Shown piece by piece: positions 16,480 through 41,075 of a DNA stretch of 44,390 nt. The notes under the pieces were generated by a model that saw only the letters and a program-made list of their open reading frames with translations, was not told where the DNA came from and did no database searches. Both the position numbers and the translations under genes were made by a program. Origin of the DNA: a virus. The stretch lies in the IMG/VR virus record IMGVR_UViG_3300030503_000223, one strand, 5' to 3'. The first letter of the stretch is position 1, and every line of letters starts with the position of its first letter.

Positions 16480-17481
16480 TTAGGAAACCGTGGCTTCGGT
16501 GTTGAGGATCTGGTCGACCTTGCGAAGCGGAATTCCCAGGAACTTGTATTCGATCTGGGTCAGACCCTCCTCTACGCTCAAGGCGGCGTTGGATTTCGCC
16601 AGCGCCTGAATCTTCAGGATGCTGAACATGGTGCGGTTCATGTAGAACGCACAGTTACCGGCCGTCAGTGAGGGCAGACGGTCAATCGAGCGGCTCATGA
16701 GGCCGATGAGATCCGCCGCGATGTTGTTGGATGTGATGGTCGTATCGATGTTGCAGATACGAACTACATACCTCCAATCCGGTACCGCCAGGCCACAGCG
16801 CCACTCCCAGTACTCCCGATACGCCATCATGCGGGCGCCACCGACGCCTGCGACGTTCTCCACTACCTGGAGGCCCAGGTCATGGTGCTGCAAGCCTGCC
16901 TGTGAACCCTTCGGGAAGATGCCAAAGACCGAGTTCGGTCCCCAGCACACGAGCCAGATGGAGGTATTGACGGAGGCCGAACCACCTCCTGAAATGATGT
17001 TCTGTGCGAATGCGCCGCCCGAGATTTTGTTGTATCTCGGAAAGAGTCCGCGGAAGACCGAAGGCGCTGCTGTCGGGTCACCGTAGATGGTGAGCTGCGA
17101 GAAGCCCTGGTTCATCGATTCGATGAAGGCATCCGCTTCCGTCATGCGGAAGGCAGCTTCTTGGCCGTTGAGTTCGGCCACGGACTTATCCACTTCGAGG
17201 AAGCCTGCGAGTTCCGCGGTAGCCTCATCCACACCCATCGTGGTGGACTTGCTCGGCGGAATGCCCTGGTTCATGGCCCGGGCCATGACGACCGGCAAAC
17301 CCGTGCGCTGGATTACCCTGTGACCGGTGGCAAGATTGCCTTCCTGCCAGTGCATGTCCGGGAGCATCTCGTTCTTCTGAGCGAGTAGCTCAACGATGAG
17401 CGGGATGCGTCCACCGGGATCGGAACGCGTCGCCCAATCGGCAAGGGTGAGAACGTTTGAAGCAACAGCTATTTGGGTCAC
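16480..17481 (-). CDS. Major capsid protein
   Basis: 333 aa. GTG start with AGGAG 8 nt upstream. The N-terminal LADWATRSDPGGRIPLIVELLAQKNEMLPDMHWQEGNLATGHR pattern is typical of one HK97-fold capsid family. Follows the scaffold gene. Confidence 0.8.
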   Translation of the reverse strand: MTQIAVASNVLTLADWATRSDPGGRIPLIVELLAQKNEMLPDMHWQEGNLATGHRVIQRTGLPVVMARAMNQGIPPSKSTTMGVDEATAELAGFLEVDKSVAELNGQEAAFRMTEADAFIESMNQGFSQLTIYGDPTAAPSVFRGLFPRYNKISGGAFAQNIISGGGSASVNTSIWLVCWGPNSVFGIFPKGSQAGLQHHDLGLQVVENVAGVGGARMMAYREYWEWRCGLAVPDWRYVVRICNIDTTITSNNIAADLIGLMSRSIDRLPSLTAGNCAFYMNRTMFSILKIQALAKSNAALSVEEGLTQIEYKFLGIPLRKVDQILNTEATVS

Positions 17482-36337: not shown

Positions 36338-36816
36338 TGGAACTTCTGTTCACCAAAGGCAACACCGGGCTCGTTCCAGCAAGTGACGAAGCGCGCGAGT
36401 GGCTGGATAAGAAGAAGCGTGGTGTCGCAATCATGGTTGAGCCGAGAGAGATCCGAAATGGCGCGTTCTTTCGCAAATGGTGGGCGCTCGTGAAGCTCGG
36501 CTACGAATATTGGGAAGGCAGCGCACAGACCATCGAGTACAAAGGTCATGCAGTGCTTCCCGATTTCGACCGCTTCCGTAAGGACGTGATCATCATGTGC
36601 GGTCACTACCATCCCGTCGTTGGGATCAAGGAGGAAGTGCGCATCGAACCGGATTCCCTGCGTTGGTCGCAGATGGATGAAGGCACATTTGAGAAGCTGT
36701 ACGAAGCAACCATCCGCGTGCTGCTCGCCCGTGTGTTCAATGGGAAGATTTGCCCCGCATGGACCGAGGAACAACTACGTGAAGTCGCGGAGAAATTTCT
36801 TGAGTTCGCGGCGTGA
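36337..36816 (+). CDS. DUF1367-like phage protein
   Basis: 159 aa. REIRNGAFFRKWWALVKLGYEYW resembles the DUF1367 signature as I remember it. Confidence 0.5.
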   Translation: MELLFTKGNTGLVPASDEAREWLDKKKRGVAIMVEPREIRNGAFFRKWWALVKLGYEYWEGSAQTIEYKGHAVLPDFDRFRKDVIIMCGHYHPVVGIKEEVRIEPDSLRWSQMDEGTFEKLYEATIRVLLARVFNGKICPAWTEEQLREVAEKFLEFAA

Positions 36817-37415
36817 AGGCGCACAAGCTTGAAATGGCCTGTGCCGAGTGCGGCCGCTCCTACTTCAAGAGGGCAGATCGCATTCGTGACCCAGATTTCT
36901 GCCGGATCGCGTGCAGGAAGTCATGGGACGCCAGAAGACGATTCGAGTCTCGGGCAAGGGATTGTGAGTATTGCGGGAAGAATTTCATTCCCCGGGCGGC
37001 CCAGCTCCGCGCAGGGGGTGGCAGATTTTGTTCCGTTTCCTGTTCCACACGCGCAATGGGGCATTTGATCCACTCTCCTGAGAGCCGCAAAAAGGCGGCA
37101 GCCACATGGCGAAGGAATGGGAACAAAGTGCCAGAGGGGCCTGGTCATCCGCAGTTTATGGGCCGCAAGTTGGTTAGCGGTTATGTGATGGTCTGGGTGG
37201 ACGATCGCGGCTACATACAGGAACACCGGCTCGTTGCAGAGAAGAGCTTGGGGCGCATGCTTAGGGCTGATGAAGTCGTCCATCATCGCAACGAAATAAG
37301 GACGGATAACCGGCCCGAGAATTTAGCGGTTATGACCCGCGCGGAGCACATGAACGAGCATCGCGACACGCTTGTTACCGCAAGAAAGGCCGTGCCATGG
37401 CGCAAGACCGGTTGA
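36813..37415 (+). CDS. HNH homing-type endonuclease with two N-terminal zinc-ribbon repeats
   Basis: 200 aa. HHRNEIRTDNRPENLAVMTRAEHMNEH is an HNH motif. N-terminal CAECG..FCRIAC and CEYCG..FCSVSC repeats. GTGA-coupled start. Confidence 0.8.
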   Translation: MKAHKLEMACAECGRSYFKRADRIRDPDFCRIACRKSWDARRRFESRARDCEYCGKNFIPRAAQLRAGGGRFCSVSCSTRAMGHLIHSPESRKKAAATWRRNGNKVPEGPGHPQFMGRKLVSGYVMVWVDDRGYIQEHRLVAEKSLGRMLRADEVVHHRNEIRTDNRPENLAVMTRAEHMNEHRDTLVTARKAVPWRKTG

Positions 37416-37678
37416 GCAAGGAGGCAAGAGGTCGTGAGTGCCAAGGTAGGATTCCTGGCGCATGCAATTTTAACTCGGAAACAACGGTGCTCGCGCACTT
37501 CAGACTTATCGGAATTTCCGGCCTCGGTATCAAGGCTCCTTCCTGGTGCGGAGCATGGCTTTGCTCGGGGTGCCATACCTTGGTTGACTCCTGCAAAGAT
37601 GATGACGTCCAACTCGACTTCGCAAAAGCCGTTCTTCGGACCCTCGGCATTCTTTTCACGGAGGGAAAACTGAAATGA
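37397..37678 (+). CDS. DUF1364-like (YbcO-type) putative nuclease
   Basis: 93 aa. CQGRIPGACNFNSETTVLAHFR......G.G.K......AWLCSGCH..VD fits the DUF1364 Cys/His pattern. Confidence 0.55.
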   Translation: MAQDRLSKEARGRECQGRIPGACNFNSETTVLAHFRLIGISGLGIKAPSWCGAWLCSGCHTLVDSCKDDDVQLDFAKAVLRTLGILFTEGKLK

Positions 37679-37715
37679 GCCGCCCGACCGTCATGAAGCA
37701 GAGGAGCTAGGGTAA

Positions 37716-38882
37716 GTGAATAATCCGCTCATGCCGCTCTCATTCACGCGCACTCTGCGTCTGAAAGTTCGCGCCGAGTCCTATCCATGGCTCAATGCTG
37801 CGGCGGTCGAAGTCAATCAGGTATTCAATTGGGCGAATGCGACCAGCTTTGATGCACGCCGCCGCACGGACCTTAAATCCAAGTGGCTCTCTGGCTTCGA
37901 CCTGTGCAACCTGACCAGCGGGGCGACGGAGTATTTCGAGCGGATCGGCGCTGACACGATTCAGTCAATTTGCACGCACTACGCGCAGAAGCGGACAGCA
38001 GCCAAGCGCCTGAAACTACGCTGGCGCGTGAGCCGAGGTGTGCGCCGCTCGCTCGGCTGGATACCGTTCAAGGCGGCGAGTCTCAAGCGACGCGGCAACG
38101 CGCTGCGATTTGCCGGCAAGAGTTTTCGGGTATTCGAAAGAGAGCAACTCGCCGGTGTAAAGTGGCGTGATGGGTGCTTCGCGCAAGATGCAGTCGGGGA
38201 CTGGTACTTGTGTCTGCCGGTCATTGTGACGGCAGAACAGACCGTAGCTCCGATGGAGGCCGTCGGCATCGATCTTGGACTCAAGACCATTGCCACGACT
38301 AGCGATGGCGAGAAATTGGAAGCCGGACGCTGGACGGTCGGTAATGCGGTAGCGCTTGCCAATGCGCAGCGCCGTGGGCATAAGCGCCAAGCCAAGCGGA
38401 TACACCGCAAGACCGCGAACCAGCGCAAGGACGCGCTGCATAAATTCAGCACTGGGATCGTGCGCAGATATCAGACGATAGTCGTTGGCGACGTGAGCAG
38501 CCTCAAACTGGCCAAGACCAAAATGGCCAAGTCCGTTCTGGACTCAGGTTGGGGGATGCTCAAGAACTTCCTGGATTATAAGAGCCAGTCGGCTGCCAGG
38601 AATTTCTCAGTAGTCAGCGAGAGTTACACCAGCGTCACTTGTTCTTTGTGCGGGTCGCTTAGCGGTCCGCGTGGGGTAAACGAGTTGATTGTAAGGTCGT
38701 GGATATGCCGGGACTGTGGTGAGTCCCATGACAGAGACATTAACGCGGCTCTGAATATCCTGACCGCCGGAAGGTGCTCCGGTCCGTGCGCGGGAACGAG
38801 TCTTTCACCGCATGCAGTCGCGTCGAGCACGGCATCTCGCCGTCGCGAGACAGGTAAAAGACTGCGTGAGGTGGCGGCATGA
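37716..38882 (+). CDS. tnpB: TnpB (IS605 OrfB family RNA-guided endonuclease)
   Basis: 388 aa. GAGGAG RBS 9 nt before GTG. RuvC-I is AVGIDLGLK (D186). Zinc finger CSLCG...CRDCG. RuvC-III is HDRDINAALNI. The canonical RuvC-II E is replaced by G258 (IVVGDV), and a Glu lies at 302 (VVSESYTS). Confidence 0.9.
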   Translation: MNNPLMPLSFTRTLRLKVRAESYPWLNAAAVEVNQVFNWANATSFDARRRTDLKSKWLSGFDLCNLTSGATEYFERIGADTIQSICTHYAQKRTAAKRLKLRWRVSRGVRRSLGWIPFKAASLKRRGNALRFAGKSFRVFEREQLAGVKWRDGCFAQDAVGDWYLCLPVIVTAEQTVAPMEAVGIDLGLKTIATTSDGEKLEAGRWTVGNAVALANAQRRGHKRQAKRIHRKTANQRKDALHKFSTGIVRRYQTIVVGDVSSLKLAKTKMAKSVLDSGWGMLKNFLDYKSQSAARNFSVVSESYTSVTCSLCGSLSGPRGVNELIVRSWICRDCGESHDRDINAALNILTAGRCSGPCAGTSLSPHAVASSTASRRRETGKRLREVAA

Positions 38883-39042
38883 GCACCGGGAAACTCGCAC
38901 GCGAAATCTTCTGGTTCCTGATTATTTTGGTCATCGCGACGTGCGTCAGTTTTTTGATACCGCCTGCGGATATTGGGGTGAGCTATCTACCGGGTACGCA
39001 CTGATGGGCCGATCCGCGATTCATTTTACCACTGGAGATATT
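38760..39042 (+). ncRNA. Candidate omega (right-end) guide RNA scaffold of the TnpB element
   Basis: Assigned by position: the 3' end of tnpB plus a 164-nt non-coding tail. Hairpins CCGGA-aggtgc-TCCGG (38767-38782) and TCGCG-t-CGAG-cacggcat-CTCG-ccgt-CGCGA (38818-38847). T-run at 38950-38955. Boundaries are not defined. Confidence 0.35.
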
Positions 39043-39046
39043 TGAA

Positions 39047-39370
39047 ATGACTGCAAAGAAACTCGATGCTGATCAGATCCGTCAGGGAGACGTTCTCATC
39101 GTTCGTGTGGGTGACGCTCCGCGCTCAAAGAGCGAAGGTCGTGTGGTGATCGCGTACGGGGAGGTAACGGGCCACAGCCATCAATTCATGGCCGAAGCCA
39201 AGGTATCGTACCTCGGCCGTGAGGCGGGACTCGACCGCTATGGCGTCCCTGCGACGGCAAAACTCTTGCATGAAGAGCACACCGCCCCTGCCGTGCCGGC
39301 CGGCCTCTACGAGCGTCCGGTACAAGTCGAATGGCAGGACTCGATGGAGCCGCGCATCGTCGCAGATTGA
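39047..39370 (+). CDS. Hypothetical protein with GEVTGHSH motif
   Basis: 107 aa. GGAGA RBS. QGDVLIVRVG...IAYGEVTGHSHQF resembles a recurrent phage protein family of unknown function. Confidence 0.5.
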   Translation: MTAKKLDADQIRQGDVLIVRVGDAPRSKSEGRVVIAYGEVTGHSHQFMAEAKVSYLGREAGLDRYGVPATAKLLHEEHTAPAVPAGLYERPVQVEWQDSMEPRIVAD

Positions 39371-39383
39371 GGGGGAAGCCAAT

Positions 39384-41075
39384 ATGTCATTACTCGATCA
39401 GTACAAAGAAGCCTGTAACTTCCCGGGCAAACTCGATGTAGCCGCTGTTGAGAAATCACTGGCGGCTTACTGCTCAGCGCTGGGCGTCAGACGGGAGATC
39501 GTCCGCTTGCCCAGGGGCTGGTCGCTGGAGAAGTATCCACCCCTGTCAAAAATGATCCACGAGGTTCTGACGGACTTCGAGAAGCGTTCGGGGCGTAAGC
39601 CCAGCGCCGCCCTCGACGCCCTCGACGCCCGCGCCGCCCACGCCGCCAGCGACGCCCACGACGCCCACGACGCCCGCGCCGCCCACGACGCCCACGACGC
39701 CCTCGACGCCCACGACGCCCGCGCCGCCCACGACGCCCTCGACGCCCACGACGCCCGCGCCGCCCGCGCCGCCCGCGCCGCCCACGACGCCCACGACGCC
39801 CTCGCCGCCCTCGACGCCCGCGCCGCCCGCGCCGCCCGCGCCGCCCTCGACGCCCGCGACGCCCGCGCCGCCCGCGCCGCCCTCGACGCCCGCGCCGCCC
39901 ACGACGCCCTCGCCGCCCACGACGCCCTCGCCGCCCACGACGCCAGCGCCGCCCGCGCCGCCCTCGCCGCCCGCGCCGCCCACGACGCCCACGACGCCCG
40001 CGCCGCCCTCGACGCCCGCGCCGCCCACGACGCCCTCGCCGCCCACGACGCCCTCGCCGCCCACGACGCCCTCGCCGCCCACGACGCCCTCGCCGCCCAC
40101 GACGCCCTCGACGCCAGCGCCGCCAGCGACGCCCGCGACGCCCTCGCCGCCCTCGCCGCCCGCGACGCCCTCGACGCCCGCGCCGCCCGCGCCGCCAGCG
40201 CCGCCCACGCCGCCCTCGACGCCAGCGACGCCAGCGACGCCCGCGCCGCCCGCGCCGCCCGCGCCGCCCACGACGCCAGCGCCGCCCGCGCCGCCCTCGC
40301 CGCCAGCGCCGCCAGCGACGCCCTCGTTACTTTCTCACCGCTACACAGTTTTGCAGAGTGGTGCATCTATCGGCGCACCTGGTGGTGGACTGGTGAATTG
40401 TCCTGGTTCAGCACGACGCACGTAGGTGCGGTGCAATTACAGAAGCCGACTGTGCTTCATTGGAGCCAGCACGTATTCGATGCCTACGTTTCAGGGGCAT
40501 GGCTGCTGGTATGGACAGACACCACCTTGTACTGGATCGCAAAACCCACCGTGACGACAGAGCTTGTGAATGGTCGCAGACAACTGCACAACGCGACCGG
40601 TCCGACCTTGGAGTGCGACGTGCAGAATCTCTACTTCTGGCACGGCGTGATGGTGCCGGCGTTCGTGGTAGTGAAGCCTGAGTGGATTACGCTCAAGCAT
40701 ATCGAGACCGAGGACAATGCCGAAGTACGCCGCGTGATGATCGAGCGTTATGGTACGGCGCGATACATCAAGGATTCAGGGGCTGAAGTGGTTCACGAAC
40801 TTCCGGACAACTATTACGTCAAGGGGCTGCAAGGCGCGAAGCTTTATCGCAAACCGCGCAAGGATGATTCAGACATCATCATGATCTCGGTCGCCAACTC
40901 CACGCCAGAGCCCGACGGTAGCATCAAGCAGTACATGCTGCGCATACAGCCCGACGCGTACAACGGAGCAGCGGCCAAGGATTGTCACGCGGCCATGGCG
41001 TCTACGTGGCGGCGGCAGGATGGGACGCTGTATTTCAGCAAGCCGCAGGACTACCGCCCCGAGTTTGAATCATGA
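39384..41075 (+). CDS. Tripartite protein: 73-aa N-terminal region, 240-aa (X-[D/A]-A)x80 repeat, 251-aa Trp-rich C-terminal domain
   Basis: ATG 39384 with a GAGGGGGAAG RBS. The tracked 5' extension overlaps the previous gene. The C-terminal domain (HNATGPTLECD..YFWHGVMVP...ITLKHIETEDNAEVRRVMIERYG) resembles an uncharacterised domain I believe is Pfam DUF6745. Confidence 0.75.
   Translation: MSLLDQYKEACNFPGKLDVAAVEKSLAAYCSALGVRREIVRLPRGWSLEKYPPLSKMIHEVLTDFEKRSGRKPSAALDALDARAAHAASDAHDAHDARAAHDAHDALDAHDARAAHDALDAHDARAARAARAAHDAHDALAALDARAARAARAALDARDARAARAALDARAAHDALAAHDALAAHDASAARAALAARAAHDAHDARAALDARAAHDALAAHDALAAHDALAAHDALAAHDALDASAASDARDALAALAARDALDARAARAASAAHAALDASDASDARAARAARAAHDASAARAALAASAASDALVTFSPLHSFAEWCIYRRTWWWTGELSWFSTTHVGAVQLQKPTVLHWSQHVFDAYVSGAWLLVWTDTTLYWIAKPTVTTELVNGRRQLHNATGPTLECDVQNLYFWHGVMVPAFVVVKPEWITLKHIETEDNAEVRRVMIERYGTARYIKDSGAEVVHELPDNYYVKGLQGAKLYRKPRKDDSDIIMISVANSTPEPDGSIKQYMLRIQPDAYNGAAAKDCHAAMASTWRRQDGTLYFSKPQDYRPEFES
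39603..40322 (+). repeat. 80 tandem 9-bp units [CTC|CGC|CAC|AGC][GAC|GCC]GCC, in frame, with no indels
   Basis: Parsed codon by codon from the sequence and consistent with the ORF-track translation. Confidence 0.95.

Follow-up and report, generated by a model that had tools for sequence, protein, structure and literature searches.

The DNA analysed here is a viral stretch of 44,390 nucleotides (nt), IMG/VR record IMGVR_UViG_3300030503_000223; we call the whole stretch the window, and all coordinates are positions in it. At about 37677–38889 it contains a transposase-less tnpB element of the IS200/IS605 type (IS1341-like), which, judging from the sequence, most likely occupies the start codon of a small membrane-protein gene, with an ATG in the element's right end now opening a 41-codon open reading frame (ORF). 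Taken as a whole, this reading, an element at 37677–38889 seated in the small gene's start codon and a gene restarted from the element's right end, is in our judgement probable. An earlier sequence-based description of the locus (the original prediction) had proposed a solo tnpB insertion of roughly 1.37 kb next to a YbcO-family gene, flanked by an 8-bp direct repeat. Its observations are partly confirmed and its interpretation is partly supported: the insertion does adjoin the YbcO stop codon, but its right boundary lies at 38889 and not at 39042 or 39050. The features of the locus are collected in Table 1.

Related copies fix the right end of the element

All 22 other copies of this tnpB family that retain their 3' side end at the equivalent of window position 38889, in the motif ...GGCATGAGCACCGG. 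Across the 23 copies, window included, the right-end consensus is GGC(A/G)TGA(G/A)CACCGG, and the flanks diverge directly after it. The end lies seven bases past the tnpB stop; within the last 11 bases of the element, ATGAGCACCGG, an ATG overlaps this stop as ATGA, and for two other family copies the boundary is also backed by real empty sites. Relatives of the window TnpB reach 87% amino acid (aa) identity on IMG/VR contigs and 79% in metagenome-assembled genomes (MAGs) of soil Gammaproteobacteria and Steroidobacteraceae; one genome (G001) has three family copies that are 95–100% identical, and the exact window protein is recorded on 35 + 51 (= 86) contigs.

The original prediction had instead delimited the element by the repeat TGAAATGA. 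Both copies are present as it described, 1372 bp apart, the first holding the stop of the YbcO gene (termed DUF1364-like there) and the second the ATG of the gene at 39047–39370. However, the second copy sits 154 bp past the element's right end, and the TGA in it (39043–45) is merely an alternative-frame stop in the spacer between GGAG and the ATG of gene 39047. When a 91-nt left zone and a 181-nt right zone were placed at random within the same window with the spacing of the tnpB locus (a 1.3-kb segment between them), an exact shared 8-mer was found in 25% of placements (analytic expectation 0.30). The repeat is thus a coincidence of two gene junctions, no more than expected by chance. A third copy is found at 16990–16997, not at an evident plus-strand gene junction.

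The model built on this repeat has the element run from 37679 to 39042 or 39050, couples YbcO to gene 39047, starts the guide near 39043 and predicts an empty site ...CTGAAATGACTGCAAAG.... It accounts for the presence of the 8-mer at both places and for the tidy ATGA junction that is left when one copy is deleted together with the interior. It conflicts with the shared end of the 22 other copies, whose right ends do not coincide with the boundary claimed in the original prediction (which had itself put forward a comparison with other copies), with an RNA helix that closes at 38888, with a family that inserts without target duplication and with a small ORF that exists without MSTG, the residues that precede it in the window; the 8-mer match, moreover, is expected in a quarter of cases. 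We regard this model as highly improbable.

The family inserts scarlessly and often within start codons

For the 16 copies with both ends, we joined the two flanks to reconstruct the empty sites. At 8 of the 16, an ORF of at least 100 aa starts −3 to +12 nt from the joint (binomial P ~2e-9 against a null of 0.026 per position), and the joint splits the ATG as AT|G in four of these eight. Real empty sites were recovered at two loci. In genome G004, an aldehyde dehydrogenase gene reproduces the joined flanks of copy L051 base for base, its product beginning MSTTVIPKDR where the filled form reads MNTG+SSSALPKDR; and in four genomes a TonB-like gene begins MLLAPYY... where the filled L049 reads MSTG+LLAPYY. 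None of these five empty sites revealed any duplication or loss. The unpublished genomes G023 and G042 contribute to none of our conclusions. These data establish that the tnpB family inserts scarlessly, often within a start codon between AT and G, and that its right end then provides a replacement ATG; a reading of the 8-bp repeat as a target duplication is at odds with this.

The right end opens real genes, which encode aldehyde dehydrogenase, an MFS transporter, an amidase, a TonB-like protein and a phage tape measure protein, the last of these on a viral contig and aligned from its N-terminus. Other copies of the AT class have leaders of 21–22 codons that run through the left end and stop at or overlap the tnpB start; in one case the leader is fused in-frame to TnpB.

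We also noted 5'-truncated tnpB remnants (L002:3000–6059; L008/L009:3001–3494; L066:1500–1849) in which both the omega-RNA region and the right end survive. The tape measure gene mentioned above is opened by the right-end ATG of L002, and its alignment to PHROG profiles begins at residue 19. Such retention suggests that the right end is kept in remnants as the host gene now depends on it.

A probable element-free form of the small gene

In the window, the small protein reads MSTG and then KLAREIFWFLIILVIATCVSFLIPPADIGVSYLPGTH, as is typical of a small membrane protein, and 59 contigs have records of exactly this 41-aa form. Its first three codons and two bases of the fourth come from the element's right end; the native gene has 38 codons (38890–39004). 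A 38-aa form, P0011, is found on one 2,290-bp JGI/IMG contig: it has M directly before KLARE and matches the window protein identically from K5 onward. JGI/IMG records retain V for GTG starts (P0015, P0017, P0023), and the M of P0011 thus indicates an ATG start codon. The window codon before AAA is GGG, from which ATG is two substitutions away, while a left flank ending in AT joined to G AAA CTC yields ATG AAA CTC directly. Window MSTG+KLARE and element-free M+KLARE therefore show the same pattern as the filled and empty sites of the family: scarless insertion is observed for the family, and for the window itself we infer it through P0011. As P0011 has the form predicted by removal of the element, the 154 bases from 38889 to the second repeat copy are phage DNA carrying the small gene.

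On this evidence, the empty site most likely read CTGAAAT|GAAACTC, with the small gene's ATG overlapping the YbcO stop in an ATGA coupling; written more fully, the predicted site is ...GGAGGGAAAACTGAAATGAAACTCGCA... / ...CTGAAATGAAACTCGCA..., with YbcO upstream and no tnpB. The original prediction had held that removal of the element recreates an ATGA junction. Such a junction with the YbcO stop is indeed most likely, although the partner would be the 38-codon gene at 38890–39004 and not gene 39047.

Alternatively, P0011 could be a mutated filled site, in which a change at the right-end tip created a start codon before AAA that the gene caller then chose. One family copy (L006) does have the last right-end G changed to T, and GGG-to-GTG takes one substitution; but the M recorded at JGI/IMG means ATG, which takes two, and an upstream in-frame ATG with a better-placed GAGG would still be open to the caller. 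We consider this explanation very unlikely.

The original prediction had also proposed a search of related genomes for the empty site. This yielded the element-free protein form on its one contig and no DNA-level empty site of the window locus. An exact-pattern scan of IMG/VR for the small gene's 5' end returned nothing, and a search for short YbcO fragments that could lie on the P0011 contig gave no match. Near and distant searches of a phage collection gave no relatives matching the window; IMG/VR contained only distant relatives of YbcO (40%) and of the 107-aa gene at 39047 (55%), and a metagenome scan with YbcO gave three distant loci, none informative on the empty site. A competing 77-codon frame at 38812–39045 was rejected as a real gene: its first part merely reads the tnpB 3' end in another frame, the protein collection does not contain it, and P0011 favours the frame of the 41-codon ORF.

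A covarying omega-RNA ends with the element and places the guide

We aligned the last 200 nt of the 23 copies and derived an omega-RNA consensus of 35 pairs. Of the aligned cells, 91% are paired, as compared to 36–39% with slid partners; changes on both sides occur in 23 pairs, and none of 500 shuffles reached the observed values. The long closing helix (38791–38819 with 38860–38888) stops at 38888, together with the element. A search of the region against Rfam gave no match, and a single-sequence fold of 38760–38889 was no more stable than shuffles (z = −1.2); the case for this RNA rests on covariation, not on the single-sequence fold.

Since the right end lies at 38889 and the scaffold closes at 38888, the guide is predicted to be templated from 38890 onward (GAAACTCGCACGCG...), with a length of about 16–20 nt assumed from studied TnpBs (PMC8612924). 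The original prediction had taken the guide from 39043 or 39051; its coordinates would give a wrong guide and a wrong empty site, and both the element end and the guide target are corrected here.

The TnpB protein and its mobility

Searched against the PDB, the window TnpB matches ISDra2 TnpB (8EXA, 8BF8, 8H1J) with E 1.7e-24. Both Asp residues of the RuvC domain and the zinc ribbon are intact, while the position of ISDra2 E278 reads Gly then Asp (VVGDVSS, window 38473–38490), so that the D-E-D RuvC triad is incomplete in the window protein, although the Asp or a relocated Glu might take the place of the missing residue. The same Gly-Asp codons are present in the five other copies with codons printed (L001, L002, L003, L006 and L051/52).

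These features raise the alternative that TnpB has been domesticated, either as a nuclease-dead, guide-RNA-directed DNA binder (TldR-like) or for another exapted phage function. The replaced RuvC-II Glu, the decayed left end and the identity of the protein on 86 contigs are what such a history might leave. Yet Gly-Asp is common to five other copies, and near-identical copies within one genome point to recent mobility; neither the two Asp residues nor the zinc ribbon has been lost, and, as is usual for TnpB elements, no target-adjacent motif (TAM) accompanies the guide's own template at the filled site. We judge domestication unlikely.

We searched for transposases in the four copy-bearing genomes G001–G004 (those of L047, L042, L051 and L049, respectively). 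The IS607 serine TnpA (NF033518) had no match in these four. The hairpin ends and scarless joints of the family fit IS605 rules better than those of IS607.

The left junction is degenerate and may be secondary

Family left ends begin with GAAG, followed by a hairpin of the form GNNAC-loop-GTNNC with compensating changes (GAAAC/GTTTC, GCGAC/GTCGC, GCAAC/GTTGC). The window left end has neither the terminal GAAG nor a GAAAC..GTTTC-type hairpin: an nhmmer profile built from the closest left ends matched the window only from its position 31 (of 88) onward, at 37686, and 37677–37685 could be matched only with gaps. With this hairpin gone, the window copy would no longer be excisable by a TnpA-type enzyme. 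The 'recent, clean' insertion of the original prediction is hard to reconcile with these losses, with an identical TnpB on 35 + 51 contigs and with the fused small protein on 59. The 11-codon stub that it described, from ATG 37675 to TAG 37710, is present and stops 5 nt ahead of the tnpB GTG at 37716.

The motif before family left ends is YNAY: among 19 copies, −4 is C in 15 and T in 3, −2 is A in 17, and 18 have C or T at −1. The original prediction had located a TAM in the left flank, ...CTGAAAT(GA), and a TAM there is likely. If the flank is original, the left joint would be 37676|37677, the next two bases, GA, being ambiguous; this placement follows from the AT|G rule and P0011. As a side observation, unfilled orthologous sites (L112–L115) have ACAT or AGAT before the start-codon G where the filled L049 (1400–1407) has CCAT; the base at −4 may determine which genomes are open to insertion. 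We rejected a left end complete from 37660 after TCAC, as aligned by MAFFT, in which the last YbcO codons would be element-derived. YbcO homologues at 49–75% identity share an EGKLK-type tail, and the profile match lends no support to positions before 37686. Those at 75% and 73% identity end at the same position with ...DEGKLK and ...QERKLR, and more distant ones with REGxLK; the FTEGKLK and stop of the window are thus native and not element-derived.

Several points weigh against our reading of the locus. The first 16–30 nt of the left end are missing, and the present left junction may be secondary; the flank AAAT fits the motif at −2 and −1 but has A at −4, a position taken by C or T in 18 of 19 copies. 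The YbcO codons EGKLK and stop already account for the Shine-Dalgarno (SD)-like GGAGGG and for the ATG at 37675, which are no independent evidence of a start site. P0011 is known from its protein record; the 41-codon ORF had no family match in the phage collection, Pfam or PHROGs. With Gly-Asp in place of the RuvC-II Glu, cutting is uncertain, and no Y1 TnpA (PF01797) was found in G001–G004, which are MAGs and possibly incomplete.

Some of these points favour a different history of the left side, in which the small gene's ATG had another upstream context (YNAT|G) when the element first inserted into it, and the left-end terminus was lost later, together with upstream DNA, through a deletion or recombination that brought the remnant next to the YbcO stop. 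In that case the ATGA at 37675–78 would be fortuitous, and the right side would be as we describe it. The loss of the left-end terminus and hairpin, the break of the family pyrimidine at −4, and the ATG and SD-like tract that follow from YbcO codons all agree with this history; among viral contigs, 5'-truncated copies that retain the right end are common (L002, L008/9, L066), and no YbcO homologue was listed on a 2290-bp contig, the length of the one with P0011. What this history needs, though, is a coincidence, namely a deletion ending just where ...AAAT runs into GA, the two bases that open the family's left ends; the left flank moreover joins the right flank in frame, giving the observed M-K-L-A, and unfilled orthologous sites can have A at −4, so that this position is perhaps less strict. 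We hold a secondary left junction to be possible, although less probable than direct insertion at 37676|37677.

Table 1. Features of the tnpB locus in the window.
Feature	Position	Strand	Remarks
YbcO-family (PF07102) gene	37397–37678	+	Pfam E 2.4e-22; ends ...FTEGKLK + stop
First TGAAATGA copy	37671–37678	+	holds YbcO stop 37676–78, overlapping ATG 37675–77 and the inferred junction 37676|37677
11-codon leader stub MSRPTVMKQRS	37675–37710	+	putative old host ATG running into the degenerate left end; TAG 37710
Degenerate left end	37677–37715	+	family homology secure only from 37686
tnpB	37716–38882	+	388 codons from GTG 37716; PF07282 + PF01385; RuvC + zinc ribbon
Omega-RNA scaffold	38766–38889	+	almost wholly in the tnpB 3' coding region; extends 7 nt beyond the stop
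Omega-RNA helices	38766–71/38778–83; 38791–38819/38860–38888; 38822–28/38845–51		covariation
Right-end terminal motif GGCATGAGCACCGG	38876–38889	+	tnpB stop TGA 38880–82 overlapped by ATG 38879–81
41-codon small membrane-protein ORF	38879–39004	+	MSTG+KLAREIFWFLIILVIATCVSF...; ATG in the element's right end
Predicted guide template GAAACTCGCACGCGAAATCT	38890–38909	+	small gene's first codons; position from the right-end boundary
Second TGAAATGA copy	39043–39050	+	spacer + ATG of gene 39047; no element boundary
107-codon phage gene, phrog_27831	39047–39370	+	paired in many phages with the DUF6745 gene after it

A model for insertion, translation and homing

We propose that the element landed in the start codon of the 38-codon gene, whose ATG would have overlapped the YbcO stop. 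The first base of the element, G, would preserve an ATG at the left joint and thereby create a short leader ending just before tnpB, and tnpB would be translated off the ribosome site of the host gene; the right-end ATG overlapping the tnpB stop would in turn restart that gene. In sister phages without tnpB, TnpB and its guide would cut at the TAM, here presumably AAAT, plus GAAACTCGCACGCG..., the first codons of the small gene, and repair after cutting would copy the element in, a form of homing akin to the restorative-homing model (Meers et al., 10.1101/2023.03.14.532601; Karvelis et al., PMC8612924).

A broader proposal, to which we give about even credence, is that the family is built to dock in start codons: the G completes an ATG, a leader leads to a coupled tnpB, and the right-end ATG restarts the gene with an MST(G) tag. 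We have documented a family of 23 copies, with five real empty sites and a covariation-backed RNA, in which tnpB elements often sit exactly on start codons that are replaced from the right end; in a full-text search of the literature we found no paper describing start-codon replacement by the right end of a TnpB element. If the proposal is true, start-codon docking would account for the persistence of such elements, without introns, in densely packed phage genomes and in operons, for the retention of the right end in decayed copies and for the aim of the guides at the first codons of genes. The 5' ends of genes, including essential phage genes such as that for the tape measure, would become safe harbours, and every guide would be directed against the opening codons of a gene in rivals that lack the element.

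Comparison with known systems

The element resembles ISDra2 TnpB (Karvelis, 2021, PMC8612924) in its RuvC domain and zinc ribbon, in a structured RNA over the tnpB 3' end and in a guide from the flank past the right end. It differs in that nearly all of the scaffold lies within the coding region, its end being 7 nt past the stop, that the RuvC-II Glu reads Gly-Asp, that the TAM is approximately YNAY rather than TTGAT, and that the right-end tip doubles as the start codon of the host gene.

With the peel-and-paste elements IS608 and ISGst (Meers, 2023, 10.1101/2023.03.14.532601) it shares insertion 3' of a short motif, the lack of a duplication, a scarless donor joint and subterminal hairpins, a likeness validated in the family by empty sites and hairpin covariation. 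By contrast, no Y1 TnpA was found near any copy or in the four host-like genomes, and the left-end hairpin is missing from the window copy.

IStrons, IS607 elements with group I introns (Zedaveinyte, 2023, 10.1101/2023.11.20.567912), likewise place a tnpB insertion sequence inside a gene without destroying it. The solution here would be translational (leader ORF, ATGA overlaps, replacement ATG) rather than RNA splicing, and no serine TnpA was found in G001–G004; if start-codon docking is true, it would be the translational counterpart to the intron solution of IStrons. Free-standing phage homing endonuclease genes (intronless homing) are also selfish nuclease genes wedged between or at the edges of phage genes, and are expected to cut sister phages without the gene. 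Here, target recognition for the predicted cutting would be RNA-guided.

Neighbouring genes

The conserved start of the TnpB protein, MPLSF.., corresponds to ATG 37731. Inside YbcO, a 79-codon alternative frame (37434–37673) is called on nine short contigs and the 93-aa YbcO on one only; gene-call counts for YbcO in the population are uninterpretable, as differences in start choice confound them. The 107-aa gene and the DUF6745 repeat protein (window 39047–41075) form a conserved pair in many viral contigs, with varied upstream neighbours (L013, L028, L030–L036, L039). Directly 5' of YbcO lies an HNH endonuclease gene (PF13392 and zinc finger; 36813–37415), whose stop overlaps the YbcO 5' end; it is a second potential homing nuclease adjoining the tnpB element.

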